Positions 10,180 through 55,912 of a DNA stretch of 57,742 nt are shown here, piece by piece. A model generated the notes under the pieces. It made no database searches, had not been told where the DNA came from, and worked only from the letters and a program-made list of their open reading frames with translations. Numbering within the stretch: position 1 is the stretch's first letter; each line of letters begins with the position of its first letter. The stretch is from Blastocystis sp. subtype 4 (Eukaryota). A program made the position numbers and the translations under genes. The stretch spans positions 1-57,742 of the forward strand of contig NW_014569514.1 in assembly GCF_000743755.1 (NCBI RefSeq). The letters are read 5' to 3'.

Positions 10180-10290
10180 CAATTCAATAAGACAATTTAT
10201 TACTGTAATATGAATCACGGTTTTTAAGGATTTCTACCAAGTGCTTTAGGCTCCTAGCAATTCAGTATACTTGGTATATATTAGTATATC

Positions 10291-17172: not shown

Positions 17173-17249
17173 ATCCAAGAATAACAAATTAGAAAAGAGC
17201 TCAAATTGACCAATCCCTTTCTTTTGTTTCTTCTTCATTATTCCTTGAT

Positions 17250-18519: not shown

Positions 18520-18558
18520 CACTACTTTTGCGGTCTTGTTTGTTGGATATCAAACCCA

Positions 18559-24104: not shown

Positions 24105-24167
24105 AGACTCGTTTTTTCTCATGTTTGATAAGAAACAATAGAATTACGTTAGATCAATCAACTATTG

Positions 24168-26449
24168 TTAACTTTGGTTGAAGAACATGGCAGTGTAATT
24201 TGGCAAGGGCCAATCATGATAGTCCACAATCTTTTCCAAATTGTCAACATGGAATCGAAGTTCATTCATTGCGGGAATGATATCATCTCTACAGAAGTAA
24301 GAGATCTGCTCCTCATTCTTAATACCGTTAACTGTATCAATGACTTGATTCAGTTTATTCAAGGCCTTAATGGAGTTATTAATCTCTTCAGACATGTACG
24401 ACACATAGGACACCTGATGTGTGATGTCTTGTCCAGGCAAAGCAGCAGACAACGCACTCAAGGATGAAGAGAATTGGGTTTGGGCTCGGAATACTGCAGG
24501 AAGGATTCGTTCGGTACACAATGCACGCATCGTACGAGCTTCAACGAGAATATCCTTATTGTATTGGTCCCACAGAATGCTTTGACGAGACGAAATCTCA
24601 CTGGACTTCATGATTTGCAAGGATGTGAACAACTCAACATTCTTAGGATCGGTCCATGCCTTGATTGCTTCAGGACTAGCGACATTGTTGGGAAGACCCA
24701 GTTCAGCTGCTCTTGAGATCCATTCAGAGGAGTATCCATTACCATTGAAGATAATCCGGTTATGTTTCTTGAGAATATCAGTGACTACCTTCTGAATGGC
24801 ATCATCCAGACATAGAGTCTGCTTGTTACGTAAGATCTCATCAGCAATGAAACGGAGAGAATCAGCCATAATGGAATTAATGACCATATTACTTCGAGCA
24901 GCACTCTGATTCGAACCAACAGCACGAAATTCAAACTTATTGACTGTAAAAGCAAAAGGTGAGGTTCGATTGCGGTCATTACCCTCACGATTGATTGTTG
25001 GAATTGACGTCACACCCAAACAAAGATTTTCATCGCCCATAGTCCGAGCAACACTTGTTTTCTTCATGTAGAGCTCCAGAGCATTACTCACATCTTCACC
25101 CAGATACATTGACATGATAGCAGGAGGAGCTTCGTTTCCTCCAAGACGATGATCATTGGAAGCACTAGTCACACATGCACGAAGCAGGTCACCATACTTG
25201 TCGACAGCACGAATTGAAGCAGCCACTGAGACAATAAATGGAATGTTTTTCTCGGGATGAGGACCCAACTCAAGGAATGTTGGTGTCTCCTTACTGCACA
25301 TGGACCAATTGTTATGTTTACCACTTCCATTCACTCCTTCAAATGGTTTCTCATGGAATAATGCTTTGAGACCATGTCGACGACCCTGCTTCTTCAAGAT
25401 ATCCATTCCTTGGAGATTCTGGTCCGTTGCAAGAATACTGCTACCATACAGAGGAGCGAGTTCGTACTGTCCAGGAGCAACTTCACGATGACGTGTAGTC
25501 GAAGGTATACCAAGCTTCCACATCTGAATCTCCACATCATGAATGAAGTTCAATGATTTTGTTGACATTTCAGCGAAGTACTGATCATGAAGCTCTTGTC
25601 CCTTTGGAGGAGAACAGCCAAACAGAGTTCGTCCGGTAAGCTTGAGGTCCGGTCGCTTATCATAGTACTCTCTCTGGATCAAAAAGAACTCTTGCTCAAT
25701 GCCACAGTTCACATTGATCTCCGTCTGAGGGTGACCAATGATCTTGAACAATCGATCGGCTTCTCGAATCAACACTTCTTGTGATCGAATGAAAGGGATC
25801 TTCTGATCTAGCACATCTCCCGTCCAGGATAGGAACACCGAAGGGATGTAGAGAGTGCCACCGTTATCGTGTTTGACAATCACAGGGTTACTGTTGGGAT
25901 CCCACACTGTAAAGCCGCGAGCCATATGGGTCTCACGCAAACCTCCATTCGGGAATGAAGAGGCATCAGGTTCACCCTTGATCAGCTTCTTGCCAGTGAA
26001 GTTACTCACTGCCTTCCCATTTACCCGAGTAATAACTAAACTTGAGAACCCCATCAAACCTATACAAGCATCTTGTTTCTGGGCCGTCACACCAGAAAGA
26101 GGTTGGAACCAATGACAGAAGTGGGTGACACCAAGTCCTTCGGCCCACTTCATCATAGCTTGAGCAACAACATCAGCCGTCTCCGGATCTAGTTGAATAT
26201 CAGGTTTCTTTCTGGCTTCTAGGACTCGCTGATAGCTGGATATCAAGTTACTTTCGAAATACGTACGCATATTTCGGGACCGACTTCTGAAGCATGTCAT
26301 CGTTGAAGGAGTACATACCAAAGACATCATCAATAAGGACAGAGGAAGAAGAGGAGACCATACGGCGTGTCATTCCAGAGAGAGTCTACCAATGTTCAAC
26401 CTCCAGCTGCTCTTACTGGTCTAGTGAGTAGACGGAGGCTGCTCAGCAT
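24168..26449 (-). CDS. glnN: Glutamine synthetase type III with a putative mitochondrial targeting presequence
   Basis: THFCHWFQPL, GEPDASSFPNGGLR, GIEQEFF, HREVAPGQYE, HEKPFEGVNGSGKHNNWS, HRLGGNEAPPAI, DRNRTSPFAF, FEFRAVG; N-terminus MLSSLRLLTRP/TLSGMTRRMVSS. Confidence 0.95.
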
Positions 26450-28453: not shown

Positions 28454-29831
28454 TCAATAATCCTTAACAAAGTAGGTCTCACCACATTGGCACTGACATT
28501 GGTTCCCCACACTCTGACAATAGCATGGCTGATCTTTATTTACATGAACATAGTCAATTCCACATGATACTTCAGCAACAGTAAATATATGACCACTCAC
28601 TCCCTTAACCAATGTGTTTCCAGCTAAATCTTTAAAGGCATTCTCACCAAAGGACATCGAGTACATTCCAGGCTCGAATTCCTCAGAGGGCTTTATCATA
28701 CACTCGTCATTGGAACAGGAAACCTCTTTAGAACTCTGAATATTCACCTCGATGTTGTTTTTCTCACCTGTAAACGAGATGACTCCAGCATTTGGAACCA
28801 CCATCTCACTAAAGGCAATACGAATTACAACCTTCTTAGGAACATTTGTCTTAAAGTTCTTGGGATGGACGAACAGAATGTAGGGCTTGTCACTGTCTAT
28901 CAATCAATTCTCAATCACAATATCACCAGACTCCACCGTGAAGAAATAATCATTTCTTGTACCACACTTGCTTCCACTCTGGCTGAGAACAATACCAGCA
29001 TTAAATATCACTTGGTACTTTTGCAGACCCACAAGATTGAGGTCATAGATCACAATCGACATATGATCTGGACCCAACACAACGTGCTTTGTGTCGGTTA
29101 CATCGACAGTAACACTGCTACGAGGATGATCCATCACAGAGTGAAATTCAATTGTTCCCATACCAATGTGAACAATTGAATCAAAAGCAATTGTCACGGT
29201 AGGCTTCATTGGAATATCAACAGCATCGAATGGAGGATAACACCTGGAAGGAACCACATTAGCAGCAAAATCTATATGTCAGCAAGCATCTTCAGCTACT
29301 ACCACTGATCGTGTAAAAAACGATACTCTTATATTCTAGGCCAAAGGCCTTCTCATTGATGCCAATTCCCTTGATACTAGATAAGGTCTTAATGGTATTT
29401 CCTTCAAGACGCTGAGATAGATAAAACACATAAGCAGTATCAGGTTCAAGCACATCACCAAGACAACTAACAATAGGGAACTCCAAAGTGTATTCATTCA
29501 CCATTTTGATACAAGAGGCAGGAATCTCTGTCGAAGTACCTCTAATCTGGTTTAGAAGATAGAAGAAGCCTGAAAAACTTTGAGAAGAAGGAACAGCATC
29601 ACTGAATTGAAGGTGAATCGTAGTATCAAGAAGTACGTTTACAGCCGACTGGGACGGTGAATACTTTTTAATATAAAACTCGTTACTATCTATAATATAA
29701 GTAAAAATCCAAATAAACGTACCAGACTCAAATGTAATAGGATCTTCACAGTTCACATCATCAGCACTGCAAGAAGATTGGGCAACTGATGCAAGGCAAA
29801 TGAGGGCCAGAACTATGGTAATACTCTTCAT
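28454..29831 (-). CDS. Secreted protein with about 3 SbsA/Big_5-type Ig-like domains and a six-Cys C-terminal module
   Basis: Signal peptide MKSITIVLALICLASVAQS; repeats P..S..NV....I.LQFS / P....V....V.IAF / FKDLAGN; C-terminus CGIDYV..N....CYC......CQCQCG. Confidence 0.8.
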
Positions 29832-31847: not shown

Positions 31848-33836
31848 ATGCTTCGGTTCCTTTCACGATTCGGGGAATCTGCTAAAGGAAGACGATTCTT
31901 CTCTGGATATTTACCGTCTGGGATAAGAAAAATGCCTACAAACCGGTTTCATCTGAGAGGGACTCTTCCAGGCTTTCAAGAAGTGAATCGGAACTTACCA
32001 CTTGCTTTTACGCAAATTCGATCTGTTTCATCCATTCATAAGAAGTACATGAAGATTGAGTAGCGACAGTATCCTAGTATTACGCCTAGTGTAAAGAAAA
32101 AGAAGGAGCGAAAGGAGAAAATGCCGAAAGTTGTCCAAATGAAGCATTTCTCGGTTGCTTTAGTTGGAAGAACGAATGTTGGCAAATCTACCTTATTTAA
32201 TCGACTTGTCGGGAGAAAAGATGCTCTTGTGAGCAAAGAGGCTGGAACAACTCGGGATCGCAGAGAGGGTTTAGCTCATATTAGTGGATTGGAATTCACA
32301 TTGATCGATACTGGTGGTTATGTTGTTAGCAATAAGGACATTTCGATGACAGAACAACAGATTAACAAACAAACCGAATATGCGGTTGAGAAAGCAGATA
32401 TCATATTTTTCCTTATCGATGGAAAGGTTGGAATTACTGGAGAGGATCGTGGAATTGCGGCGTAAGATTTGAGGAGTGGATTAAGGAGTAGTTGGCTAAG
32501 AACCAAACAGAGCGTTAATAATTTCCCAATCTATGTCGTCGTGAACAAGGTAAGAGAAGAATTTTAGATGATATGTAGACGGAAGGACTCTTTACGAAAG
32601 TAGATGCTAATGGAGACTGTGCTCCTTGGGAAGACATGAAAGCCCAAATCTATGAACTAGGTTTAGGTGAACCTATTGGTGTCTCGGCAGAACATGGAGA
32701 TGGTCTCTTAGACATCTTTGATGTTTTGTACCCATATGGAGACTTGCTTAATTTACGAAAGAAAGAGGATCGAGAACGATATGAAGCCAGTCAGCAGCAA
32801 ATTTCAACCGATACACAACCATATGACATTCGATTTAATGTAGATGCAGTTGGAATTCTTTTGGAGATTGAGATTTAGGAGGAAAAGGATCGTGATGATG
32901 AGATTCTTCAACTCACAATTCTTGGGATCCCAAACAGTGGAAAATCCACCTTATTGAACACTTTATTAAAGACTGATCGATTTATTACTGGAAGTATTCC
33001 TGGATTGACACGGGATACAGTTAGTACTGAAGTTGAGTATAAAGGACGTAAGATTCGACTTGTTGACACTCCTGGTATTCCAAAAGCAGATGGTGTGTTG
33101 CCTCCATCACTCAATTCGCTCAGCATCTATCATGCTCACAAACAGCTAGATTATGCTCATGTTGTTGCTCTGATTCTGGACGGAAGTCGAATTCTCACAA
33201 AGCATGATCTGGCTCTTGCTAAGGAGATTCTCGATAAGGGTCGAGGTCTCTTCATCGTTCTGAATAAGAGTGATGTGATGCAGTCGACGGCGGTTGCTAA
33301 GAAGCAGCTGGTCACCTACATCGATCGTTACATCCCAATGGTATGATTTGAAGAGTGGATGGAACTTAGGCTGGAAAAGTACCTTCTATCGTTGTATCAG
33401 CACTCTATGGGAAGGGAACAGATGCAGTGTACCCACTAGCTTTAGATGTGTTTGATCGCTGGCGAACTCGGATTTCAACGGGTATTCTCAATCGATGGTT
33501 GGAGGCTGTGACCTTCCGACATCCTCCTCCACGAACAAGTACTGGAAAGGAGGTAAAGTTAAAGTTAGTCTGAGGGATCAGATTGATTCATAGATATCTA
33601 ACGCAAACGAAAGCGAGACCACCAAGCTTTGTATTATTTAGCAATGTGAAAGACATTGACCGAACCTATCTTCGATACCTAAGTTCCTGCTTACGGGAGG
33701 AATTCAACTTGGATGGAATTCCGATTCGAATTTTTGTAAGAACAGGCGATAATCCCTACACAGTAGGTATCGTATTTTTTCGTAACGTTAAGAGCCACAA
33801 AGTCTGAAAAACCAAAGGGCAACTGTCTTTTACTAG
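31848..33836 (+). CDS. der: Der/EngA double GTPase, organelle-targeted (stop at 33807 or 33836 depending on the last acceptor)
   Basis: GRTNVGKSTLFNRL, GTTRDR, DTGG, VNK, SAEHG; GIPNSGKST, GLTRD, DTPG, LNKSD; YLTQTKARPPSF..YLRYL..LREEF.LDGIPIR; Arg/Phe-rich presequence. Confidence 0.93.
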
Positions 33837-34040
33837 TCTTGTTTGTTTCAATCGAGAATGGAAAAACTGTGGCTGCAAAAGAATTACGGGAATTTTTAAA
33901 CACTATGCGAACTTGGGTGATGAATCGTCTTACCTGAGAAATGGTTCTTTTACCAGATTTTCTAAGATAGAACATTTACTAACAAGGACAATGTTTTCTG
34001 TAGGAGCGAGATGCTGTTTTTGTGGTTTCTTACCTTCTAG

Positions 34041-37000
34041 ATGATACTTGTTGCGTTGTTGCTTCTATCGTGTTCTACAGCTTTTACAGTACAGTGTACG
34101 ACTCCTGATATGAATACCTATTCACCTCAGGTTTCGTTTGTCTGTACCTTCTCTGAGTCTGTCTCTTTGAATCATGTGGAGAGAATCTTTGTTCCTAGCC
34201 TTGTATCAGTTTCTCCTCTTAGTGGAGAACATACTGTTTACACGGTTGTTGCTGAGGTGCAAGATGACACTCTCGGAGAAATTTCTCTCCTTCTGGGAGA
34301 GGGCGCTTTCGTCAAGGGTGAAGAGCGTTCTCCTGAGTATATGGTGACAGTTACTTGTTCTAACTGTGTTTTGGGTCTCATGTCTAGATGATTTTGTATA
34401 TGAACATGTCGATGTTGTTGCTACTATCAACCATCTTTCTGATAGACCTGATTTCGCTATCATTTACATCTCTGGAGGAATGACGGTTCGTCCAAACTTC
34501 CAAAGCATTAGCGAAATTGCTGTTCTTCCTCCAAGTGTGGACGTGATTAGTGTTGAAGCGACCCTAACCTCGTATGTGGTCAAGGTGTTCGTGAATGATC
34601 CCAATTCTCTGCGTGAGGCTACCATTCGGATCAAGGAAGGAGTGATCAGTTCATACTGGGGTCAGAAAACTAATATGGAGAAGGATGTGTCTATTGATGT
34701 GCCTCCTCTGGATCATAGTGAATCTACTTTCAAACTTTGGCCCACCTATGGAACGATTTACACTTCTTCGGATGAGTTCCGCTATCCTATTCCTACTGGT
34801 GGTTGTTCTGTTGATGTACAGTCATTCTCTGGAACGAATATTGAAATCGTGCGTGTCGAGAATGATGAGGTCTCACAGTATCTGGTTGCTCGTTTAATGG
34901 ACCCTTCGATCCCTGGTGGCATTAGCTTCATTGGTTATGCCCCTGACACTTGCACTTCGTACAACTATCCTGTGGAGCCGAGCGTGATGGTTGTGAAGGA
35001 AGCAGTGCCTACATATGAGATTACTTACAAGACCGGTACCTCTGGATGTGTGGATGTGAATGTACTCTTCAGTGCTCCTGTCAAGTTTGTGTCCGATGCC
35101 TATTTCAATATTACTTCTGTCTCTCAAGTGGCTCCATATGTGATAAGTACTCCAGTACATCCTGCAGGTCCTGAACACTATTTTGGCCTGGAAGCCACGA
35201 TGTGTATTAGTTCTACAAGCGATACTTTGTTGGTCTCGATGAATCGTGATGCTGTGAAGACTCCTTCTGGTGCTCTGATCCCTGAGCAGGAACCCATCTC
35301 TATCTTGGTATCGAAGTTGACTCTGGTTGTGAGACTGCTTCCTGACGACCTTCCTGAGTCCTCTCAGAACATGACTTACGTCATCCGTCAGCCGACTGTT
35401 ACCTTGTCCTTCGGCACTGACACTGATTCCTCTATTAACATGAATCGTTGTGACTTCTCGAAGGCTTTCACTTCTGACTATAACGTTGCTCTGTCAGTGA
35501 CTATGGAAACCTCGCGTCTGAGAGTGGCTGCTACTACCGAAGCTATCGATCACCATGTGATTGCCTTCCATGCCGATCGTGTTACTTGCAGTGGTTCCTT
35601 CACTGTTGAGTTCCTTACCCAAGAGTTCAAGTATGCCTATGATCCTCCCTTCCGTCCTGGTGACATTATCATCACTCGTGTCAATTCATATTACTCTGCT
35701 GAGTTCGACTTTGTGCCTCTTCGTAAGATTTTCTCATGGAACAAGATCTACTTCACTGATGCTGGTTGGGTGAACGAATATTATGGATTCATTGATCATG
35801 GTTCTGATGGTTACATCAGCTGGACTCCTAAGACTGATGTGAATGCAGGTACGGTTCAGCAGTGGAGTTATAAGGCTATGACCGACAAACTGGATCCTGA
35901 GATTCCTTTCGTCGTGAACACGGAGTATTCCTTCAACTATGAGCAACATGGTTTCCTGTTAGATTTCCAGGATAACTTGTTCATTTATGCAACTGGCAGT
36001 TGTGATACGAACTCTGTTTATGATGACTTCGGCCATATCAAATTCATTTTCGGTGTGTACTGGTCGTCTTCAGAATGGGCTCCTGAGACCTTCAATTACT
36101 TGGACATCACCTCTGAGTATTCTGCATTACCTCAGGTTCTGACCAATTATAGTATTGCTCTGGGCTTGGAGTCTAAACCTGTCCCTCGTGGAGTGAACTA
36201 TATGTCAATTGATCAAAATCACTTCTTCACTTTCACGTATACGTACTATCACATCATTGAGATGATTGTCGATAAGCAGAACTGGTTGACATCTCAGAAG
36301 GATCGATTCATAACAGCACCTCAAATCGCCTACATGGAACGTCCTATGGATTTCACAGTGGAGCAGGTCGATACAAGTGTCTGTTTCAACTTCGTGACAC
36401 CGTATACAGTCACACGGAATGTGGACATTGCAACGTGGAATATGTCGAGAATACGTCTCTACTTCAACGACGAGCCTTTGATCCCTGAGATTACTTACTC
36501 ATCTGCTGGTTATTGTGTGAACTATGGTAATCTTACGACGGAGGGTATAGTTCGTCTGGAGATGGAGAAGGGAGCTTTCGTCTATACAACAACCTCTACA
36601 AAGACTCCTGTGTCATTTGAGTGTGTGGCCTACAGCATGGAGATTATGATATATAATGTCCCTGAACTCATTGTGGACTACGCGACGGACTCTGTACTTC
36701 AGAAGGTGACTATCACATCCACTATTCCTTGTGTTGAGTGGGGATTCATCTCTGCATTCAACAGCAGGGCTGTACATATTTCTCAGTCCTCGACAGAGAC
36801 CGTTTTGGCTTTCACTGCTGTGGATGCAGGTGCGAAACTCTATCTTGATAATGGTTTCTGTAAGACTGCAGGACAGCGGGAGTCTGAACGACTTCTCCTT
36901 CCCACTCTCACGGTGGCTCCTATGTCTGGTCGCGAGACAATATTGCGTGAGGCCTTCTTTAAGGAGGTATTGAGCAAGCATGAGGTGAACACGATTAGTG

Positions 37001-40000
37001 TGAAGGCTCCTGATGTGGACTGGACATTGTCGACTGATCGTTTGGAAGATATGAACCCTGAGTGGAGTGAGTTTGATCCAGCGACTGGAGTCATAGAGTT
37101 AACATTCCGTTTCCCGATGGAAAATGGAAAGAAGACTGTAGTCTTGCCTCAAGGTCTATTTATCAAGAATCAGACCCTCTCACAGGGAATGACTCTTTCC
37201 TATTGGATGCAACAGGGTGAAGTCGATGTGATGCAATCTCTCACACTTCCTTGGGCTGAGTCGGTTCGTGAAGAATCTGTCCGAGAGGCAGTGTTCAGTG
37301 ATGGCTTTGTTGTGTCGAGTGGCAGTACTCCTACAAATCTGCTTCGTTTCGAGAACATGTGTCGTAGTATTGGTTACAAGATGGGTGCTTCCATACCTAC
37401 ATCTGTTAGCGTTGCTCTTATGGATGGAGACTGTGTGTATGGAGTACATGAGAATAGGATTATGGATCCTTATACTAATACGAACTCTGGATTTGAAGAT
37501 ACTTTGGAATTCGATTTCCTTCCTCCGATGGGTGAGGCTATGCTTGTAGATGAGATTACTAGCGAGAAACCTGAAACGAATCGTTTCTACTGGAATCATT
37601 CTCCTGTAGTGGCTCTGTTTTTCAATGAGCCCCTTGTTCATTTCAATGAGTCACTTCTTCTAATCACTGTCGATCATTGTGATATCGTCTCCGCCAGCCA
37701 TACGATTGAAAATGATCAGAGTATCATTCACTATAGCCTTTCGAACTGTGAGGAAGGACCTATTCGTGTGGATGTCGTGGATAACATCGTATTGCAGGAT
37801 AATGACGACAACCTCTGTGTGTCTCATGAGTGTATTAGCAATTTCCCGTTGTTGTTCGAGACAGACTATACAGCTCCTAACATCATTATCAGTACTGTTG
37901 AAGCATTATATGGAAGCGAGATGGATGTTTCCTTCGAAATCTCGGAGCCTGATACAACATTCACATGCAATTCAATTGGTATTGCTGTGGAGAAAGTGAA
38001 CTTCGTGGTTACTCAGGTTGATAAGTCAACTTGTCATTACTCCTTCACTCCTGAACCTGTGAATGGAACATACATTCTCTTGTCTGTACCTGCTGGTCGC
38101 TTCGTGGATAAGGCCTTGAATCCTAACGTTGCTTTCAAGCCTTTCGGTATCCCAGTCCTCAACAAGGGTGCTCAGATCTCTGTAGTTGCTCCTACTTTTA
38201 CGAATATGATGAAGACAGAGTTCACTCTCTCCCTCAACTACACATGGCTTTGTCCCAACTATGAGCACTTGTTCCCTTCAACCTTCCAGTATGATCGTAC
38301 TCTGGCCCATATTGAGAAGAATGACGAAGGTCAAGTCGTGGATGGAACCTTCATTCAGACTTTCTCTATCACTTTCCTGAACTTTGATGCGACTCATAAG
38401 GACCGCCACAGAAACATCCCTATTTACATTCCTTCCAGAGTGTGTATCAACCCACTCGGTCTCTACAACCAAGGAGTGACCTTCTATATGACTTTCGACA
38501 ATACGCATACTGTGCCTTCCGTCACATTATTAGACCGAGAGTCTGATGATAAAGACTTCACTGTGGATATCACTTTTAATGAGGTTCGTAGTTTTGGAGA
38601 GAAGGAGCCTAAGGAATATGTGGTTGTAAGTTATGCCAATCAGACGTTGAATTGTAATGTGACTCGTCATACTGAGGCCGTCTCTTTCACTTACAGAGTC
38701 AAGTGTCCTCTGAATGAAGAAGGAAACGTAAATGTGACTATTCTTGATGGTGCTGTGGTGGAAGTAACAGGTACTCCTTCACAGACCTTCTCGAAGTTAC
38801 TGCGCATTGATAGATATCCTCCTATGGTGGTTATATCTTTTACTAAGGGAAACACTTTTGGTCCTGATATTATCGAGCTCCCAATGCTAATGAATGCCAC
38901 AGAGGTGATGACTGTACCACAAGATAAGAATTCCAGCTGCTTCGGGATAGACCACGAGAAAGGCATTAAGGTCCAGGTGAGTCCTCTTCCTTCTCAGGTT
39001 GCGAACTGGGAAGTCATGGTGACAATGATTCGTTTGTTCTCGGAGCTCCAAGCTGGTTCGTTCAATATCTACATTAAGGAGCATTGTATGAAGGATGAGG
39101 ATGGGAACTACAACGTCCAATCGAATAACCTGACCTTCTACTATGACTTCACAACTCCTAACGTTACTCTAAATTGTCCTTCTTCGACTGTATGGCGGAG
39201 TATGACTATTACTGGAACGATGGACGAACCTTGTCACCCACTCACGGAAGCCAATATCGTTATGCCGGATGAAAACTGCTCTATAGATAGCGGTAGTCTT
39301 AGTTCGACTGAGACGGCCTTCTCCTTTACGGTGTCTTGCAGTGTGATTGGTAACTACCAGTTCGGTCTGCGTGGTGTGAAGGATCTGGTGGGTAACGAGG
39401 CTCGGATCATAGGTGTGTGTAATGGAAACTTTACGGTGAATGGACCTAGAATTGATTACGAGATTCGAAATCTGGTTAATGATAGATATATCAACACTCC
39501 TTCGTTCACAATCTATCTATCTGTTTCTTCTTGTGCTTCAATGAATCTTACCGAGAATAATGTGATCGTCGAGAATGTGAAGAACCTGCAAAGGACACGA
39601 ATGGCTACTTGCCAATGGAGATTAACTGGAAGTGCCGAGGAAGATGGTCGGGTGCTGATTCGTGTATTATCAGGTGCTGCTATAGATATATATGGAGCCC
39701 CTTCCCTTTCGTTGTTGATTGACGACTTCTTTAGCTATCAAGCCAAGCCTGAGGTGACCACTATATCACGTAGTCTTCTGCCTTCAGGTATGACAAGTGA
39801 TGTGTATATCTGTTATGATACGAGTATTGTGCGTGGTGAGGGACATGTGCTGACAGATGGAGGATGTTCGGATGCTTCGGTAGATCGTGTTGAAGGTAAC
39901 TGTGTGTACATGCAAGTGGCAGTGACAACTGGAGAGCGTTGTTATCTGTATTTGGAAGAGGATCTCGTCAAGACTGCCTGGGAGTTGAGTTCAGTTGGTC

Positions 40001-43000
40001 GTTATGTATGGATTGGGATCGATGATCATCCTCCTGCTTTGAATGTGGTGGCTAGCATTGATGATACCGATTCATTACCTGTCCCAGATGCCACCGATTC
40101 TCACAAGCAACATTTCTATTTGAATGGTAACTTCGTCTTGAAGTTGGCTGTGGCTAGTTCTTGTCGTTTGGATCTGGAGAAATTGGATCTTGGAACTGCC
40201 ACTCTGACTGCGGTTTCAAAGTCTTCATATCTCGAGATTCCGTTTACATTCGATAGTGACGCTGATAAGGATATTCAAATCACTATGAATGAAGGTCTCT
40301 TGACAGATAGTTTTGGTCGTAAGAACGAACGAATGGTATATATGATTCACTATAGCAAGGCTATAGCTGTGGTATCTGTGGAGATGACGACCTATTCCAG
40401 TAAAGTACCCATCACAGCATCTGTGTCTTTTGATAAGGACGTGTATATGACTGCTAAGAATGTCATATCAATGATGAACTTTACATTTATTTCCACTAAT
40501 GCTCGCAAGTATGAGTTGGCCTTCGAACCTGAGGTGGAAGGTATGTATACCTTTGAGTTACAGAATATTAAAACGATATTTGGTAATCCTGTGGATAATC
40601 AATCGTACTCGTTCTACTATTACACAGAGCAACCCACTCTAACCAATACCATCCCTGAGATCGAGACGACAACAAGTGGTAATGGTCGAGATGGACTTAT
40701 CCAAATGTTCTTCAGCCATCATATGGCTGATCTCTCTGATACATCATTGGATGATATGTTTGTGTCTGAATCTGGATCGCTTTCGGAATACTTTGATTTG
40801 GTCTCAGCTACTGTGAATGAAACTGAGGTATCAGTTAAACTGACTCCAAAGTCTACTTCTGGAGACTATTACAGGTTCCTTGTGAGATTTAATGATAATG
40901 CCTTTGTGGACAGAGCAGGCAATACAGCTGTGTCGGCTAACTTCACTCTTATAATCGATAACCGTCCTCCTACTGTTACATCTGTTCTCCACAATGGTGG
41001 TGCGATCTTCTCTCGACTCCCTCTTTCTCTCGTGATCACGTTCTCAAGACCAGTTGTTCTGGCCGAGAACTTCGCTTCAATGGTGTCTGCATCAAGTGGA
41101 GATGTTGTGCTTTCCTTCTCTTCACCTAGGGCAAAGCTTGTAAGGGAACTCACTATGCCGGAACACGTAACGGAAGTCACTTTGGTCTCTGTTGAGAACG
41201 ATATTCCTCTAACTGTGGGAATGGAGTGGTCTGTGACTGTGGAGCCTGGTATTGCTAAAGATGAATATGGTGTGGTGATAGCACATAAGAATGAGACAAC
41301 TATGACGGTGACAGATAGGACTTTGACTCTGGAAACAATTGGATACGGCGCACAGAACACTTCTTCTGTGATGCTGACATTTGACAAGGAAGTATATGAT
41401 TTGAAAGAGGATAAGTTGACGTTGGTAAATGCTGATATAAAGGAGTGGAGTACGGAGGGTAAAGTGTTGAATCTCTCTCTCGAATGTGCTACACAAGGTG
41501 AGTGGTCGATTCATTTTGATGTTGCTGCTGTTGAAGGTATTGATGGGAGTTTGACAACGGAACCATTCGATGTTAAGGATAAGTTTGACAACATGCCTCC
41601 TATTGTGACCTGTGAAGTGCCTCCTACCATTGGTGCTGGACAAGTCAACATTACTTGTAATGCTTCGGAGCCCATTCAAAAGACCAGTTCGATATTCTCA
41701 GTGGTGCGCGATAGTATGGTGTTGGTTTCTACAGAGACACTGAGCGAGGATAGGTTGACTCTGTGGATTACGTTCGTGGCTGTAGAGACCTATTCTGCTG
41801 GTGAGAGTTATTCTGTGGTCATAACTTTGGATGACTGCCGAGATGATGCTGGTAATGCTTGTTCCCCTGTTCAGTACATAACAATGGTTGACTTTACTCC
41901 TATTCTTGTTAAGATGAGTACAAGCCGTGATTATCTTCATAACAACGAGACTGTCACAGTGACTGCCGACTTCTCCAAGCCTATTATTGCTGACAGTGTA
42001 GATCTTGTTATGGATTATGATGATGATCTGATTACATTAATTATGGAGTTAGACTCCATGGATGTGGCTCATCTGAGTTACTCATGGGTGATCAGGGTGA
42101 TGAGCACAGAGTTGACCTCGGATATCGTTCCTATATATTTCGAGATTCCTGCTGGAGTGGTCAATGATAAGTTTGGTAATGTCAATGAAGAGGGTTTGGC
42201 AACTGTGTATCTGAATGAGCTGTCGCCTGAATTGTTTGCTGGATGTCGACAGAATGAGAATATGATCGAGGTGAATGTTACGGTGCAGAATGGACCTCTG
42301 GGTCCGATCGACGCCGAGATGTTTGAGTTGTCGGAGAATATTCACTTCGATAAGGTTGTGTCCATAGTGTCGGATAATTCGTTGATGCCTGGTTCCTGGA
42401 TTCAGGCGAATCTCATGTTCATTGTGACATGTGAGACTTCGTGTTCTTATTCCATTCGCTTCCTTCATGAGAAGATCTTCAATCTGGCTGGTAATCAGAT
42501 GGAAGAGGATTTGTTGATTGATGGTATATTTGTGCGTGCTCCTGTGGTATCAGTGAATGTGAAGCCTTACTATTCGGCTGAATTGGATCAGCTTGAAGTG
42601 TCTGTGTCTGAGAGATCTGATATCTATTGTCAGCTCATCCAGTTCAATCTGCCAGAAGTGGAAGTTCAGCCAAAGTCGTGTTTGAATGCTCTTGAGTGTA
42701 TATGTACTGTCAACTTCGGTGCTGTCACCGAGATGTCCAAGGTCAGTCTGACCTTCCCTGCTCACTCCATTAGCAACGCTTATCATGTTTCCAACGAAAA
42801 CACCGTAGAGGTCTCTTTCTACTACAGTCCAGCACCTACTATGCCCTTGTTCTCCACACAGTGGGATGAAGATCAGCCTGTGGTGAATATCGACTTTACT
42901 GTGTCTGCTGGTTCTCCAGGTGTGAACCTTACAGAGAATATGATTCAGTGTTCAGGTTGTGAAGTCTTGAACTGGACTCTACTTGACACTGAAGCTGAGA

Positions 43001-46000
43001 TCATGATGTATTCGTTCCTTGTATCCTTCTTGGATGATCAGGCAAATTATGTTCGTGTGTATATTGAGGCTGCGACGTTCATCGATCCGTTTGGCCGTCC
43101 AAATTTGGCTAGTGAGAAGGTACTTCGTCGTGACGCTGAGGCTGTAACGATTCAACAAGTCATTTACTCGGAAAAGCGTGATGATGTGTTAGAACTGGTT
43201 TTCTCGAAGCCCGTGTATCCTTGTGGTGGTAATGTGGCTCTGACTTGTCTATCGAATCATACTTACACCTACTATCGTAATAGTCAGCAAAATGAAGTCC
43301 GCTATTCAGCTCAGAAAGTTTATATCTCGTTGTTGCCTTATGGTGATCTCGATTATGAGGTGTCCTGGGATGAGACTGCTTTCTGCGACTCTACCAACTA
43401 TCCTGTAGCAACAGAGTGTACAGACTGTACCTTCCATAGTGCTCCGAATGTCCCAACTCCTCCTCTGTTGAGTGTGGAGGATGTAACAGCCCATAATGCT
43501 ACTATTCACTACATGATCACACACGATGGAGGTGAACCTGTCCTGTCGGCTGTCGCTTACGTCATGCCTGGTGCTGATTTGGCCCCTGCTATTTTCCGTG
43601 CAGATGCTGCCACAGGAGAGATATTGTTGACAGGTCTGAATGCCAATACAAACTACCGTGTCACGGTCCTCCTGAGAAACGTTTATGGTTATAGCATGCC
43701 GAGTGCTGAGCAAATCTTCTTAACAGCCCCTTCGACACCTGTATCTGCTTCTGATCTGCGTATCTGCGATATGGTGAATCCTACCAAGATTGGTGATGTG
43801 TATGTTTACAGTGAGGCAGAGGCTTGTTGGACACCTTCTCCTACAAATGATATATTCTATCGTCTGGAGTTGAGTGCTTTGATTGATGGTGTGGCTCAGG
43901 ATCCTGTGGTGATGTATGAGGGTGTGAACACCACGGCTATCATTACAGTTCCGGACCATGTCACCTCATATCGTCTCACCCTGACAACCGTGACCATGGG
44001 TCAAGTAGAAGAGGGTGAGGACTCTGTGAGTGTGTCTGCAGACTTTGTCACTGAGGTGAATCGAGAGAATGTCGAGAAGTTCCCTCAGGGAGTGGGTATC
44101 GTTGCAGTTGCGGAGCGTTTGACAGAAAGTTCGGTGCGTGTGAGTTTCACACACCCTCTGGAGAACTACTTCCGTATTGAGCGATACGAGATTTTGTACG
44201 GAAATGTGGATGATAGGACAGTGACTGCTGTAAGTCTAGCTCGTGAGAGCTATGAGTTCCTTATGGATAAGTGTGTTAGTGATCAGGTCATATTGACGGT
44301 GCGTGCTGTGGTAAGAGATGACTTCGGAGGTATTCCAAGCAATCGTGTCGTTGTGTATTGTAAGAAACCTCGTCTCCAGCTGGTTACAGACGTTGGTTAT
44401 GATTACGTGGCCTTCCGTGTGACGAGTGAAGTGGCTACAACAGTAACATGTAGCTTGAAGAGTCAGTTCTCAGCCGAGATTTTGGCTACGCGGGCTCTGA
44501 AGGTGCATCCAGTGAATGTGGCTCCTTACCAGCTGTTTAAGAGTCTTTATCCTGACACTGAGTATACTATTGAGTGTTTTGGCTATGACCTGGACTTTAA
44601 CTTGATGTCTGGTTTGGCTTCTTTCCATACTCTCTCCAACTTTGTGTTGCCTGAATTCACTTTGGACGAGATCACGGAGCCAATGCTTGGTAGCTATTAT
44701 GTTGAAGTTCCTGTGGCGTCTGTGAGTGTGCCTGGAACTATGTATTGTGCTGCTCGTCCTATCGATCAACCTTTCCTGCTCTCTCGTTCTCAGTACATGA
44801 AGGAGGATCATAGTGCTTATGTCTTCCCTGGTCAGAAGGATGTGAAGGTGGTGGTGAGTGGTTTGAAGCCTGAGACTGAATATCGTGTGCGTTGTATCTT
44901 TGATCCTGATTACGATGCTGCAATAGATGTGACCCCTCGTCGTCTGGTTGACAGTGAATTCACGTTCAAGACTCCTGCTATCAGTACTCCTTCATGGAAG
45001 TCTATGCAGCCTTTCGGATCTGTAGCTGTTCCTGCTCATACTCAGCTTGTCCTGGAGGCTTCAATGCCTGTCAAGTCGTACCTGAATGAGCTCATTCTTC
45101 ATGGTGTGAAGAACAGTGAGAATGATGTGATCATTAAGAATCGGGACATTTCGATTGATGGTGCTGTGATTACGATTACTTTGCCTACTCTGGTCCCTGG
45201 AGAGGAATATGTTCTAGAGATGCAGACAGGATGCTTCATTGATGCTGTTTCGAACTTCCCTCTGCCTGGAGTGACAATTGCTGATGAAGTGGCTTTTATG
45301 GTGTTCAATGATAAGACCCTTAGTCTGGCACCTACATTACTGGATACGGAGCCTAAGACAGATTCTGTAGCTACAGTTCTGAATAATAATGTGATCTTTA
45401 TATTTGATCGCTCTATTCGTCTCGAGTCATCAGCTGAATTCCGTGTGCGTGTGGACAACAAGACAGTGTCGCTGAAGGCTGACCAGGGAATAGTTGACGG
45501 TACCATGTTGACGGTGCGTACTGGTGTCTACTTCCCTGAGGATTCTGAAGTGGAAGTGTCCATAAAGTCAGGTGTGTGCAGTCTCTATGGAGCTTGTGTG
45601 AGTGAACCAATGAAGATCAGCTTCACGGTGGGTAAGAAGAATTTCAATCCTTCAATGCTTGATATTGTCCCTAAACCTGGTCAGAAGCATGTACCCGCGA
45701 CGGAGGATCTGGTACTGACATTCAACAAGCCAGTTGTTCTGGATGACACATATCAGATGACATTTATAGATGAGAAGGACCAGATCTTCTCACTGAATTA
45801 TGGTGTGGAGAAGTCAAAGATCACTCCTCGTCTGAGTGTAGTTCGTGATGAGATTCGTGTGCGTGGAGATGCTATTCCTGGAGGTCATACATACAGAGTG
45901 CTTTTCAATGCAGAGGCAATTCATGATAGTGAGGGCCGTTCTGCCTATGGAGTTCCTTCAGATTATTCGTTCTCTTCTTCTCAATATGGCTGCAGTGGTA

Positions 46001-46116
46001 ATTATATCTATGAGAACATGGGAGACGAGTGTCAGTGCTTCATTACTAATGAGAAGTGCGAGTGTAGATGTGGTAAGGAGAATCTAGTTGACACTGTGAT
46101 TGGTATGTTCCTCTAA
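34041..46116 (+). CDS. Giant (~4,014 aa) secreted protein with many bacterial-type Ig-like domains, FN3 domains and a six-Cys C-terminal module
   Basis: Signal peptide MILVALLLLSCSTA; one intron 34357-34387 then an 11.7-kb open exon; recurring D.AGN and D..PP.V linkers (Big-type), GLNANTNYRV and GLKPETEYRV (FN3), Big_5-like C-terminal repeats. Confidence 0.88.
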
Positions 46117-46130
46117 ATTGTTGTAAAGAG

Positions 46131-46138
46131 TGTTTGTT
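46131..46138 (+). terminator. TGTTTGTT polyadenylation motif of the giant Ig gene
   Basis: Exact motif 14 nt after the TAA. Confidence 0.75.
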
Positions 46139-49292: not shown

Positions 49293-51273
49293 ATGGAGGA
49301 AGCATCTTCAGACGTGTTTCGCATCCTGATTGCCACAGACAATCATTTAGGATACAGGTAGCTCTGTAATAATTCAAATGATATATTAGAGAGTCGGATC
49401 CAATTATCGGAAATGACTCCTTCCAAACGTTTGAATTCATCCTAAAGACTGCTGTAGAAAAGAAGGTTGGTTGATTTAGAGTTCGTTAAGTCTTAGGTCG
49501 ATTTTCTCTTGCTTGGAGGCGATCTGTTTGATGCCAATAAGCCATCAAGGAATACCCTGAATAAGACAATTGAGTTGCTTAACAAATACTGTTTAGGAAC
49601 CGGTGACATTGATTTCACGTTCCTCCCAACAGAAGACTCTCCCTTGGTTACTCTGTGAGATTATATGAGTTTTCTAATGGAATAGACCAGTTAACTATGA
49701 AGATGAGAATCTAAACATTTCGCTTCCTGTCTTTGCTATTCACGGAAACCACGATGACCCAACTCGTGAAGTAGAAATACCTATATCGTATGATGGATAG
49801 GGCGCAGAAGGAGAGGCTCTGTCTGCTCTAGACATTCTCAATTCAACTCGTTTAATCAATTACTTCGCCCGTGTTCAGAAGTGAATTCGTTCTCTTTCTT
49901 TCATTCTTAGTGTTGATAATATCCAGATTCGACCTCTTCTCTTCCGGAAAGGCAAATCTCGTTTGGCTATCTATGGAATGGGATATGTTCCTGATGAAAG
50001 ACTCTCTAGGATGTTTGAGCAACATCGAGTAACATTCTTTAGGCCACCTGAGGAGGATCAATGGTTCAATCTGTTTGTCATCCATCAGAATTGTGAATCA
50101 CGTCCTAATATGCGTTCAATGCGTCTGGATTTGTTACCCCAGTTCCTCCAGCTTGTCATCTGGGGACATGAACATGAATGCCGGATTAACCCTTCATGGA
50201 ATGATGAAGGAGTGAGAACAGAACACAATTCTGATAAGTAGAAATTCTACACGATGCAACCCGGTTCTTCATGTGTGACATCACTAATCGAAGCGGAGAC
50301 AGTACCAAAACATGTTGGCTTAATTGAAATCCAAGAAAAGGATTTTCGTGTACTACCAATTCCCATTCCGAATGTATCTCTCATCATGTGCTTTTAGGTA
50401 GATGCGTCCTTTTTTCTTCCGTCAGTTGTCATTATCGTCATATAGGCAACTCAATCCTTCCTCTCCAACGATCACATCAGAAATAGAGACCCTTTTTGAC
50501 ACTGAAATGGCGAATATTTTGGGATCTGTATCTTCTGATTCAACACTTCCTCTAGTTCGATTATCGGTTGATGTAACTGGATTCCCATCTATTCCTATCC
50601 AAATCTATGGTGCCAAATATGTGGGGAAAATCGCTAATCCGAATTCACTTCTGAATTTGCGTCGCAAACGAGTTACCAACACTGGAGTGTCCCGGTCCGA
50701 AAATGATGAATGTGCTCCTGAGATTGTTGGAGGTAAAGCTCAATTCGACCTAATGGTAAGTTTGATTGAACACAGTGTAGCTGAAGCGGGTGGTTTGCAA
50801 TTGTTGAATGAGCGACATATGAGAGAGGCATGTAGGTGTTATGAGAGATATGTGATACAGTGTCTCAATTTGTGAATAAGGGTTGCTCTACTTCATGGCA
50901 TACGATGTTGGTTCATCTTGGACGATTAGTGGGGACAATGACAGAAACTCTAGATATGACTGGATCGGATCCTACCAGTATTCTAAAGGCAATTAAGGAG
51001 GTTGATGTGGGAAGTGGAACTGATCTCTAGAAGTATGATAAGGATGGAGTGGAGTATCTTTCTACACTGAGGTAGAAGAATGTAGGTGGAATTAATTGTT
51101 AGTCGTGATATGAACGTTGAGGAAGTGGAGGAAATTGTGGACCTCAATGAAGATTCTGACAATGGCCCTGCTCCAAAGAGGAAAACGATTCAGTAGGACT
51201 GAAAATAGTCATTCATTCTAGAAGGAAGCGAGGTGCTGCTTCTGGTCGTCAAACAAAAGGAGGAATTGTATAA
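49293..51273 (+). CDS. MRE11: Double-strand break repair nuclease Mre11
   Basis: [75 protein letters not shown]. Confidence 0.95.
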
Positions 51274-51860: not shown

Positions 51861-54197
51861 TTAGACATGAACAAGAGAACTACCTATCAAAATGGCACAA
51901 AGCACAACAATCACATAGAAAATTAGTGAGCTATTCCACAGATTTGTCGTTGTATCCTGTAACAACTCATCTCCATTATACATCAAACAGCGAATCAATC
52001 TTTGATCCTGCTGGAGTTCAAGATAATCTTCATTCGGTGTAGTTAACTCCTCCTTTCCAAACTTCGAGTTTTCTGACCACAAATACCGTCTAAAATATGA
52101 GTACACCAAGGAACACTCAGTGCCCGCAGCACACAATTCACGATCCTTAAGCATACTATCCTGAAGATGGGCTATTGTGTCTTCTTTCTGATGTCCCTCC
52201 ACCTCACAGTGATGAAGTGTCTCTTCTATAGAAATTCTGTTCTTTTTCTCTAGAAGGATCTCCTCCTGCAGTTTGTTAATCTCTTTGTCCTTATCCATAA
52301 GCAGCGATTCGCTCTCTCTCTTCATTCTCTCCATCATTTCCTCCATCTCTCTCTGCTTCAATACGATTTCTTCATCCTTCTGTTGTAACAAAAGAGTCTG
52401 TGATTTCAACTCATTTTCAGCCACATCCAGAGAGTGCTCGAGACGACGTACCTCTAACTCCTGCTCCGAGAATGAGTTACGACACTCATGAAGCTTCTTC
52501 TCCAATGATTCTGTGATACTGATCTGATGTTGAGTTTGACGAAGCTGGGTTTCAAGAACTGACTGTTGGTTAAGAAGCGATTGAGAGTAGAGTTTCTCTT
52601 GTTCCAATTGATGGACTAATGAAATTCTTTCTCCTTGGAGCGACTCCATCTCACTTTTTTGGAAGGCAAGCGTATTGTGTAGATGGTCCAATTGAATATG
52701 GAGATCTGTTGTATTCTCACACTCAATGTTGGGACAACTAATATCAGGACACTCAACAGAAGGACACTCAACAGAAGGACACTCAACAGAAGGACAATCC
52801 ACAACAGGACAATTGATTGGAGGACATGTACACTTAGGACACTCCACAATAGGACAATTGATTGGAGGACATTCAATCGAAGGGCAATTACAGTCTGGAC
52901 ATTCTATGACAGGTGTCACAATAGGAGGTGGTGATGAACGAGAATGGAAGAAGGTGATGAACGAGTCCCACACTCTCAATAAATGATGCTTGATCTTCCA
53001 ACCAGTTTCACTGATCCATTCTCGGATTCGATAGCCTGTGCTTGCTGTCGGCTGACACTGACACTGAGGATTGAGATCCGAACGTTCTGATGATTGGAAG
53101 AATGCGATAAGAATGAAAATATTGAAACAGACTAAGGCGATCCCAAGTAGAATTAGAAGGATATGAAGGAACTTCTAGAAGTAAAAGAAGGAATAGAAGG
53201 AGACTTGAATACGAGGAGAAGACTTAAGATAATTCATGAGAGAAGAGAAGGAGTATGATGAAATTGAATGAGACTGGGGTGGTCTATGCGACTTCATAGA
53301 AACAGAAGATGAAGGAACTGAAGGTTTCGGAGGCTCTGGAGGAGAAGATACAGAAGTGACAGGAGGAACAGGAGCTGGAGTAACTGATGGAGAAGTCACA
53401 TTAGTGGATTCATTCACACTCCTTTCAATAGTAGAAGAAGATGGGGTATTAATCAATGCTAACTTCTCAGAGAGAATCATAGAAGCATCATTGTAGAGAC
53501 CAATTACATCGGGATCGAGTCGTTTAAATGCAAAAAGGGATTTTAAAACAACCAACAGCCTTGAAATAGCCTGAAGATTGCTAATATCGGAGATGTTCTT
53601 CTGAATCACCTGATATGTGCATTTGATCACAAAGGATAATGTATGTTCATCTAGAAGGTTACATAAATAGAATAAACGAACCATTCACATTATGACTCAT
53701 CAAGGAATAAAGGAACATGCGAACCTCAGTAGTATCAGAAGAATTTTTGACAAATTGAATCACCGAACTCTCAATTAAATCTTGAAAATCCTAGACTCAA
53801 CGATCTCAATCAAGCATACTAGCGAGTGAGTATAGAATTGGATTAAAACAGAAGAAATCTTCACGAAAAAGACAGAAGAATGATCTTTGAGAGAAGATGC
53901 CATAATTGAAACTAAACGCATATCCTCTCTCATCAAATCGGCATCAGAATGTTGTACATCCATCTCCATCATCATCTACTCAGTATTCACCGAATGCCAT
54001 CCATACAGCAATGTCTCCATAGACTCCTTCAATCAATTTCCAATCTGTTAAATCATTGATCTGTTGAAGATTATCTTGAAGTGAAGTAATGGCAGTTTCA
54101 CGATTTGTTGCAGTCGTTGTCTCAACAATCGCTTGCAGACAATTAGCAATCTAACCAATTTAAGGGAAATAGAGCTCATTACCCTCTTTTCAGTCAT
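51861..54197 (-). CDS. Hypothetical membrane protein: helical N-terminus, Pro/Ser linker, TM, Cys-Pro repeats, long coiled coil, C-terminal TM
   Basis: ORFs 53775-53975, 53175-53684 and 51861-52979 plus a TM exon LLILLGIALVCFNIFILIAFF; separated by ~30-nt introns. Confidence 0.65.
52713..52907 (-). repeat. 13 tandem 15-nt units encoding xxCPx pentapeptides
   Basis: IECPD CNCPS IECPP INCPI VECPK CTCPP INCPV VDCPS VECPS VECPS VECPD ISCPN IECEN. Confidence 0.92.
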
Positions 54198-54590: not shown

Positions 54591-55912
54591 ATGCTTGCTA
54601 GTACGTTACAATATTCCTTTAGATAATTGTTGTAGAGGCTGCTCGTGCTCTTAAGCCTACTTTCATTCGTTCCTTTGCTACCAGCCGCTGGGCTGCTGTA
54701 AGTGTCTTAATTCATCATATAATGAGATAGGTGGCTCAGGCTCCTCCAGATGCCATTCTTGGACTGAATGAACAGTTCAAGGCTGATAAGGATCCTCGTA
54801 AGATCTCTCTCGGAGTGGGTGCTTACCGTGATGACAACGGAAAGCCCGTGATTCTCCCCTGCGTTGCTGAGGCTGAGAGACGTATTGCTGGAAAGAGTGA
54901 TCACGAGTATCCTCCTATTCAGGGTCTTCCTGATTTCAACCGTCTTGCTGCTGAGTTCGTCTATGGAGCCGATAGTCCTGCTATTAAGGAAGATCGTATT
55001 GCTGTGTGCCAGGCTCTGTCCGGAACTGGTTCTCTGCGTCTGATTGGAGATTTCCTGAAGAACGTGAAGGGTTATGAGCGTGTTTACATTCCTAATCCCA
55101 CTTGGCCCAACCACTTCGGTGTGTTCAATGCTGCTGGAATTCCCAATGTGAAGTACACTTATCTGGATGCCAACAACAGATTGAACTTTGACGGTATTCT
55201 GAACGAGATTAAGAATGCTCCTGCTAAGTCTGCCTTCCTGTTCCATGCTTGCGCTCACAACCCTACTGGCGTGGATCCCACCAAGGAGCAGTGGAAGCAG
55301 ATCAGCCAGGCTGTGAAGGCTGCTAACTGTGGTGTTATCTTTGATTGCGCTTATCAGGGATTCGCCTCTGGAGATATGGAGGGTGATGCCTTCGCCATTC
55401 GTCAGTTCGTTGCTGATGGACATCAGATCTGTTTGGCCCAGTCCTTCGCTAAGAACTTCGGTCTTTATGGAGAGCGTTGCGGAGCTGCTTCCGTTGTGTG
55501 CGCCTCCAAGGAGGAGAAGGAGCGTGTCCTGTCTCAGCTGAAGGTGGCTGCTCGTACTCTGTGGTCCAATCCTCCACTGTATGGAGCTCGTATTGTCCAG
55601 ACCGTTCTGGGTGATCCCAAGCTGAAGGCTCAGTGGTATGAGGAATGCGCTGGAATGGCTCATCGTATCATCTCGATGCGTCAGGCTCTGGTTGAGAACT
55701 TGAAGAAGGCTGGAAGCACTCGTGACTGGTCTCATATTACTAGCCAGATCGGTATGTTTGCTTATACTGGTCTGACCAAGGAGCAAGTCGAGAGATGCAT
55801 CAAGGAGTATCACATCTACTTGACCATGAACGGACGTATCTCCATTGCTGGACTTAACACTCACAACGTGGAGTACGTTGCTAAGGCTTTCCATGAGGTG
55901 ACCAAGAACTAA
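54591..55912 (+). CDS. GOT2: Aspartate aminotransferase, mitochondrial
   Basis: APPDAILG, LGVGAYRD, QALSGTGSLR, HACAHNPTGVDP, FDCAYQGFASG, QSFAKNFGLYGER, SNPP, QIGMF, GRIS; presequence exons from 54591. Confidence 0.96.

Follow-up and report, generated by a model that had tools for sequence, protein, structure and literature searches.

The 57,742-nt contig NW_014569514.1 of Blastocystis sp. subtype 4 (ST4; RefSeq assembly GCF_000743755.1), referred to here as the window, contains a gene for a protein of 4,017 amino acids (aa), most of which is encoded by a single unbroken exon. We propose, with a probability of about 0.5, that this giant protein is a secreted, disulfide-braced fiber of fixed length, which would belong to the fibrillar surface coat of the cell and would carry a binding head. 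The predicted order of its parts is a signal peptide, immunoglobulin (Ig)-like units, a conserved 245-aa module, a Big_12-type stalk, an FN3 block, three Big_5 domains, and a tail with six cysteines (Table 1). A structural fiber is preferred over a variable adhesin because the protein has no anchor, its divergent units are individually fixed, its length is constant, and its predicted disulfides are conserved. Blastocystis colonizes about a billion people (PMC5608401), and its coat has been described as loosely arranged fibrils, with mesh-like connections from cell to cell and with associated bacteria (PMC6115916). The same source calls the coat intriguing and poorly studied, and counts adhesion and bacterial capture among the open questions.

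Structure and transcription of the giant gene

In the window the frame from 34348 to 46116 is open for 3,922 codons, and the corrected model of the giant gene joins 33991-33999, 34041-34356, and 34388-46116. The transcript evidence came from run X3, which was taken as RNA from its behavior, that is, splicing, A-tails, and uneven cover. The contigs of this run were spliced and A-tailed for the giant gene as well as for three neighboring genes, and zero cover was found in 19 of the 30 bins across the upstream 20 kb. Seven overlapping X3 contigs tiled the region from 34041 to 46127 with no further joint and with a poly(A) end at about 46127, while the joint of intron 1 had 32 letters on its short side. 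Run X7 covered 28 of the 30 bins and crossed no intron, and runs X12 and X15 gave short low-depth pieces only. In X15, contigs read through intron 2 without splicing and also through the poly(A) site, and this run may contain DNA. At position 45288 the window has A, while the X3, X7, and X15 contigs have G, which is either a strain difference or a window error. The giant gene is real and transcribed, and it has the features of a nuclear Blastocystis gene, which are short GT..AG introns, a catalogued record, and the motif TGTTTGTT just after the poly(A) site; this motif marks Blastocystis polyadenylation sites (PMC5608401). An assembly frameshift in place of intron 2 was ruled out, as X3 shows this intron spliced and it is conserved between lineages, and bacterial contamination was ruled out by the introns, the poly(A), and the synteny with eukaryotic genes.

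To compare the gene structure between lineages, eight loci were used, of which one is identical to the window and seven come from three other lineages (L002/L008, L003/L004, and L005-L007). All eight begin with three codons and an intron, followed by an exon of about 105 codons and a single long frame; the second intron lies at the identical place in the sequence of L003-L007, and the upstream genes are syntenic in the three other lineages. The ATG at 33991 is most likely the start, because exon 2 comes after three codons and an intron in each of the other three lineages, and two of the three have no ATG at the start of exon 2. The initial annotation, which was made by a model from the letters of the window, had described one 31-nt intron followed by an uninterrupted exon among intron-rich neighbors. 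The 31-nt intron was seen spliced in X3, but it is not the only one, as a second intron of 41 nt was found. The uninterrupted exon was borne out, with 11,729 nt unbroken in X3, versus seven introns within about 4.9 kb in three neighboring transcripts. In the ST4 genome, 5,713 genes contain 24,093 introns, and the proteins average 416 aa (PMC5608401, Table 1); these figures predict about 40 introns in 11.7 kb, as a rough guide, given that the density varies by gene. The intron-poor state is shared by all lineages compared, which means that it is old and says little about recent transfer. The type III glutamine synthetase gene of the window (24142-26384, minus strand), with two introns at its 5′ end and a last exon of 1.9 kb, is 5′-biased like the giant gene.

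The gene is catalogued in Blastocystis ST4 as a hypothetical protein with no function given (XP_014529127.1/KNB45685.1, JH06_0697). The record XP_014529127.1 lacks the first 26 residues, signal peptide included, and uses a different splice site at intron 2, so that a secretome screen on this reference model would miss the protein. The hypothetical protein KAK8794103.1 (WA171_003229) of strain BT1 equals the corrected model minus its first three residues.

Domain architecture and conservation

The FN3 and Big_5-like domains, which had been named in the initial annotation, both passed the Pfam cut-offs, FN3 in two stretches (E 1e-10) and Big_5 in three (E 7e-15), and Big_5 was above the cut-off in all nine relatives scanned. 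The Big_12 match was below the Pfam cut-off in the giant protein and above it in two of the nine relatives (P0008 and P0011). For residues 2401-2797, the Atlas found 180 features in common with Big_12 clusters (0.94), and the recognition value lay under its threshold. The two units flanking the conserved module were modeled as beta-sandwiches, with Z scores of 6-7.8 to filamin, SbsC, and invasin-type Ig domains. A profile self-comparison over 38 sequence windows and one test window gave four distinct pairs with scores of 46-53 and many with 31-41, while the reversed controls reached at most 28.6 with one exception of 36.6. Hence, the bacterial-type Ig-like nature of the domains (Big_12, Big_5, and FN3 types), supposed from the letters, was supported, and the gene is expressed. 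The dozens of ~100-aa units proposed at the same time correspond to about 35 domains as estimated from length, of which only part are supported one by one. The proposed linker motifs are enriched, with two D.AGN, five D..GN, and five D..PP against 0.04, 0.6, and 0.7 in shuffled sequences, but they mark few units.

To find signals for localization, hydropathy was used. The only strongly hydrophobic stretch spans residues 2-20 (hydropathy 2.19, next best 1.54), and its position at the N-terminus suggests that the giant protein is likely secreted. No transmembrane helix was found in the giant protein by hydropathy, and its net charge is -258. A structure prediction with two copies of residues 3748-3908, made without an alignment as input, scored 0.00.

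When the entire exon 3 product (3,908 residues) was used as the query, 11 proteins were found, which were one part of this protein and ten relatives. The ten relatives are full-length (3,848-4,144 aa), colinear, and 37-83% identical, and none of them has an internal insertion or deletion of at least 15 aa. Three match lineages of the compared loci, and P0005 and P0006 are near each other. In PMC5608401, S12 Data lists an orthologue from ST7 with 42% identity. The mean identity is highest in the conserved module (0.71) and the cysteine tail (0.67), followed by the FN3 block (0.53), the N-terminal units (0.50), the Big_5 domains (0.47), and the stalk (0.45). Among the 74 cysteines, 57 are invariant across the relatives. 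The initial annotation had explained added cysteines and sequons by adaptation to eukaryotic secretion. The strong conservation of the cysteines stands, but not this explanation, as bacterial proteins with the conserved module can be equally rich in them (133 in 3,786 aa). The sequons gave it no support, as their number (37) is close to that in shuffled sequences (34.6 ± 5.5) and below the shuffled mean in nine of the ten relatives. The invariant RRL motif is a candidate site of convertase-type cleavage; a literature search on this motif turned up nothing on the giant protein.

The 3′ end of the gene differs in the L008 lineage, where the frame passes the usual end and TGTTTGTT precedes the first genomic stop (near 12102-12153 of this locus), which suggests that the stop could be made by polyadenylation. 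The protein P0005 extends about 250 residues past the usual end, and the ends of P0006 and P0012 are also concerned.

A small paralogue with the same C-terminal end

A gene for a small paralogue of 427 aa lies 4 kb upstream of the giant gene on the opposite strand. Its sequence starts with a hydrophobic stretch, one of its three Big_5-like domains is above the cut-off, and its tail has the same six-cysteine pattern. The profile of the giant protein matched the last 174 residues of the small paralogue with 37.6 bits, and the cysteine-tail profile found the small paralogue in the window and in three loci, while it gave no match in 911 bacterial open reading frames (ORFs). The small gene was spliced and A-tailed in X3, and it is syntenic in L002, L003, and L005, where the last ten residues are nearly identical. 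The fact that two secreted-type proteins of very different length close with one module suggests a common destination or assembly tag, and the short paralogue isolates this presumed anchoring end.

The conserved module belongs to a bacterial family

Three features went unnoticed in the initial annotation, namely the small paralogue, the invariant RRL site, and the most conserved module of the protein. This module matched the N-terminus of the cyanobacterial ExeM/NucH nuclease WP_012305544.1 in three plasmid records (26.8%, E 1e-3 to 3e-3), and hhalign of the two modules gave 96.9%. To compare the module with bacterial sequences only, we used a profile for which 85 domains from 71 bacterial loci and the plasmid locus were collected, and which was built on the 74 domains of at least 120 aa. 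This bacteria-only profile matched all 11 Blastocystis-type sequences with 34-46 bits, while the best of 231 decoys reached 8.6, and in ten of the 11 the match was nearly full-length (model positions 2-3 to 166-168). These profile comparisons indicate that the module is clearly homologous to a bacterial extracellular family.

With a mixed profile 5,779 representatives were found (clusters at 50% identity), and the module was present in 47 of 301 genomes of one Bacteroidales-type order. The 30 bacterial carriers chosen for variety were mosaics with RTX or type IX secretion system (T9SS) ends, nucleases, and Calx-beta, HYR, lamin-tail (LTD), and Ig domains, and in 11 of the 30 the module was fused to nuclease domains. 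Some bacterial carriers also hold 2-8 Big_5 domains, two of them from Neomegalonema (MCI4661886.1 and MCI4662830.1). The module is often N-terminal in bacterial secreted nucleases and T9SS/RTX proteins. Neither Pfam (no consistent match in 52 members) nor NCBIfam (eight members scanned) has a model for it, so the head of the giant protein leads to a bacterial family, 5,779 clusters in size, that both collections lack. Word-based searches recovered the module in fragments of its own family only, and no match was obtained when genomes were scanned with a pattern from the Blastocystis-only alignment or when viral contigs were scanned.

To obtain a view of the module fold, structure models were compared with known structures. 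A first, low-confidence model gave diffuse Foldseek matches. The model used further (predicted local distance difference test, pLDDT, 77.6; predicted template modeling score, pTM, 0.81) gave nothing in Foldseek at E ≤ 0.001, a comparison which had been suggested together with a phylogeny in the initial annotation. The top match was the DUF4876 lipoprotein BT1938 (PDB 4q1z), a middling one with a Z score of 8.2, a root mean square deviation (rmsd) of 4.5 over 177 aligned residues, and 7% identity, and the next was the Ig-like domain of the lamin B1 tail (7dtg) with a Z score of 4.4 and an rmsd of 3.9 over 98 residues. The Atlas score for an LTD cluster was 0.85, while no lamin-tail (PF00932) or DUF4876 Pfam match was found in the 52 members, and the profile-profile comparison with four LTD domains gave a probability of 0.15. 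Hence, these data point weakly to a lamin-tail/DUF4876-like fold. According to 10.1101/2023.03.17.533168, BT1938 is the putative lid of a transporter of the TonB-dependent type, and PMC6085458 describes the role of bacterial lamin-tail domains as unresolved. The idea of an enzyme in the module was rejected, as there was no match in Pfam, NCBIfam, or PDB sequences, and no Foldseek match at the above threshold. The sequence and the model suggest that the module is most likely a putative non-catalytic binding accessory.

Origin of the giant protein

As to the bacterial derivation considered in the initial annotation, the module is clearly homologous to a bacterial family, and no bacterial donor could be named. 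In a quick tree of 56 rows, the sample of which was biased toward relatives of the cyanobacterial query, the eight Blastocystis-type rows clustered together at the end of a long stem, and no bacterial group was their sister. This tree would agree with old eukaryotic inheritance, which has a sizeable minority chance and in which the protein would be built from domains shared with bacteria, and the long exon would result from intron loss rather than from gene transfer. Such an origin would also agree with the base composition, as the exon GC content follows the host (0.445 here versus 0.63-0.68 in other lineages), and with the glutamine synthetase neighbor, which likewise has introns at its 5′ end only. 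On the other hand, the only full-length relatives found are the ten near-colinear proteins, and the other module carriers with a named source are all bacterial, while the large search gives no taxa, so that its matches may include other eukaryotes.

The giant protein as a candidate fiber of the surface coat

In the proposed mechanism, the parts of the protein would probably derive from secreted proteins of bacteria and would predate the split of the sampled lineages. The signal peptide would route the protein through the endoplasmic reticulum, where the 57 invariant cysteines would pair and stiffen the units. As one Ig domain is 4 nm long, about 35 domains would form a rod of the order of 140 nm. 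Without a membrane anchor, the retention in the coat would depend on the Big_5-plus-cysteine end, which could be a coat-assembly tag common to the giant protein and its 427-aa neighbor, and a convertase-type protease may nick the protein at the invariant RRL. The conserved module near the N-terminus would be the binding head for a coat polymer, neighboring cells, bacteria, or mucus. More tentatively, and at rather less than even odds, Blastocystis could have built the protein framework of its coat from bacterial parts, with a genus-wide rod of fixed length (~140 nm), a binding tip from the large unnamed bacterial family, and a cysteine tag shared with the short partner encoded nearby; the giant protein would then be the first structural coat protein of this organism. 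The giant gene is a conserved and expressed coat-fiber candidate with a defined head that can be probed for ligands.

Several observations weigh against a coat fiber with bacterial parts. The tree points to no bacterial donor, and no full-length bacterial counterpart was found among 911 ORFs of 72 loci, the ORFs of 42 further loci, and the 150 best of the 5,779 representatives. No self-similar pair was seen in residues 1-1100 by the profile self-comparison, single-seed iterative profiles yielded no further units, and the figure of about 35 is derived from length. The predicted signal peptide rests on hydropathy and conservation rather than on predictor output, the spliced and A-tailed evidence for the giant gene comes from the single run X3, with X15 unspliced at intron 2 and at the poly(A) site, and six of the ten relatives have no tie to any locus. 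The available part of PMC6115916 describes the coat mainly by carbohydrates, with one membrane antigen and no structural coat protein. The same part reports that the coat varies among subtypes and is imperceptible in an ST1 isolate, although the giant gene is kept in every lineage sampled.

The protein could instead be a released or loosely tethered adhesin for host mucus, epithelium, or gut bacteria, similar to LapA or SiiE, in which the stalk is a mere spacer; this is the reading of the initial annotation. We consider it unlikely, even though the protein shares the domain vocabulary of bacterial adhesins and, near one end, has one aromatic-rich module of high conservation, and Blastocystis Ig-domain proteins were earlier proposed as adhesion candidates (PMC3129679). 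A spacer should allow the gain and loss of units, and none was seen in the ten relatives. The head is conserved at 71% versus 45-53% in the stalk, FN3, and Big_5 parts, though the matching runs are from rodent gut and one locus is from human gut, and the giant protein has no anchor. This explanation overlaps with the coat fiber, which also has a binding head.

A scaffold of extracellular digestion, in which a lamin-tail-like head gathers DNA or glycan, or tethers secreted hydrolases, is improbable. Its attraction lies in the fusion of the module to nuclease domains in the bacterial carriers described above and in its position at the head of an ExeM/NucH protein. ExeM needs its LTD to be fully active in vitro (PMC6085458), and the putative transporter lid BT1938 is the closest match in fold. 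However, the Pfam scans of the giant protein and its relatives showed no catalytic domain, the similarity in fold is of middling quality (Z 8.2, rmsd 4.5, 7% identity), and the profile test against LTD was empty. Least probable is a cyst-wall or stage-specific matrix protein, cross-linked by cysteines and located outside the vegetative coat. In its favor, the gene is kept in all lineages sampled despite the variable vegetative coat, and the cysteine tail is common to a second secreted-type protein, but the transcript is well covered in X3 beside ordinary neighbors such as glutamine synthetase, with the reservation that contig depth cannot rank genes.

An expressed NodZ/FUT8-type fucosyltransferase-like gene was observed at 17226-18532 (plus strand) of the window; it is possibly relevant to coat fucose.

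Table 1. Positions of the parts of the giant gene and of its small paralogue in the window
Feature	Position	Strand	Basis
Small paralogue of 427 aa with predicted signal peptide and three Big_5-like domains; cysteine tail as in giant protein; gene with three introns	28454..29831	-	X3 transcript, profiles, synteny
Coding part of exon 1 (three codons) with the likely true start	33991..33999	+	Joint 33999-34041 in X3; same three-codon exon in L002/L008, L003/L004, L005-L007
Intron 1, 41 nt, GT..AG	34000..34040	+	Skipped in X3 contig; kept in other lineages
Exon 2: predicted signal peptide and first putative Ig-like unit	34041..34356	+	Hydropathy; 44-65% identity in four loci; without Pfam match
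Intron 2, 31 nt, GT..AG	34357..34387	+	Skipped in X3; spliced forms recorded for related clusters P0047, P0073
Exon 3, 11,729 nt, unbroken, closes with genomic TAA	34388..46116	+	Open frame and X3 contigs
About four N-terminal beta units, the last modeled as Ig-like sandwich, the others putative	34390..35610	+	AF2 pLDDT 62-86 by block; Z 6-7.8
Module with the highest conservation (mean identity 71%), assigned to an unnamed bacterial extracellular family; candidate head for binding	35611..36345	+	Profile searches, model, alignment
Stalk, roughly 23 divergent Big_12-type Ig-like units (number from length)	36346..43449	+	Pfam in relatives, Atlas 0.94, self-similarity, first unit Ig-like
FN3 block, about five domains, two stretches over Pfam cut-off	43450..44979	+	Pfam
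RRL motif, candidate processing site	44938..44946	+	Invariant in 11 of 11 sequences
Three Big_5 (SbsA-type) domains	44980..45975	+	Pfam, self-similarity
Cysteine tail, six invariant cysteines, no transmembrane helix, common to small neighbor protein	45976..46113	+	Alignment, tail profile, hydropathy
Poly(A) site at about 46125-46127; motif TGTTTGTT at 46131-46138	46125..46138	+	X3 contig end and motif position

Other genes in the window

The ordinary neighbors on the plus strand are genes for a UPF1 helicase (10285-13107), a GH47 mannosidase (14216-15100), an MMR_HSR1 GTPase by Pfam (32000-33770), which we take to be of the Der/EngA type, Mre11 (50402-50875), and a class I/II aminotransferase (54731-55912). 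An open frame on the minus strand (51861-53174) has a hydrophobic start and extensin-like repeats, with a Pfam E-value of 1.7e-6 that is far under the cut-off.

Comparison with known systems

The giant protein appears undescribed in the literature searched. Its accessions were in no paper text found, including the available text and nine supplements of PMC10690189; the secretome table of PMC5608401 and the transfer lists of Eme et al. (2017) were outside this scope and may list an orthologue. No match to He_PIG (PF05345), which we take to be the family of IPR008009, or to cadherin was found in the giant protein or its relatives, while He_PIG was detected in bacterial proteins. This comparison concerns 26 IPR008009 (putative Ig)/cadherin-like proteins of ST7, which were proposed as horizontally acquired adhesins (PMC3129679). 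The giant protein resembles this set in the genus, the Ig-like repeats, the suspected bacterial origin, and the proposed adhesion, but by its domain matches it belongs to another family.

The bacterial carriers MCI4661886.1 and MCI4662830.1 (Neomegalonema sp.), P0167, P0171 (SLH-bearing), and WP_012305544.1 share the module with the giant protein, and four of these five also have Big_5. They differ from it in the domain order, the presence of several module copies, and the RTX or SLH ends, and the bacterial carriers gave no match to its stalk, FN3 block, or tail. BT1938 and the lamin-tail domain are the best fold match of the module, but with 5-7% identity and no sequence-profile match.

The bacterial giant adhesins of type I secretion systems (T1SS) consist of closely similar repeats, the number of which varies between strains. 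Their tandem bacterial Ig-like stalk is present in the giant protein, which like LapA, BapA, SiiE, and the RTX adhesins combines a long bacterial Ig-like chain with a distinct head region. On the other hand, the assignment to the LapA/BapA/SiiE or S-layer type in the initial annotation had to be abandoned, as the units are divergent and the length is fixed, and neither an RTX (HemolysinCabind) nor an SLH (PF00395) match was found in the giant protein or nine relatives, while both domains were detected in bacterial carriers. The giant protein differs from those adhesins also in its N-terminal predicted signal peptide, conserved disulfides, and cysteine tail. Hence, it is placed outside the RTX/T1SS and SLH families, and by analogy it would work like a bacterial fibrillar surface protein.

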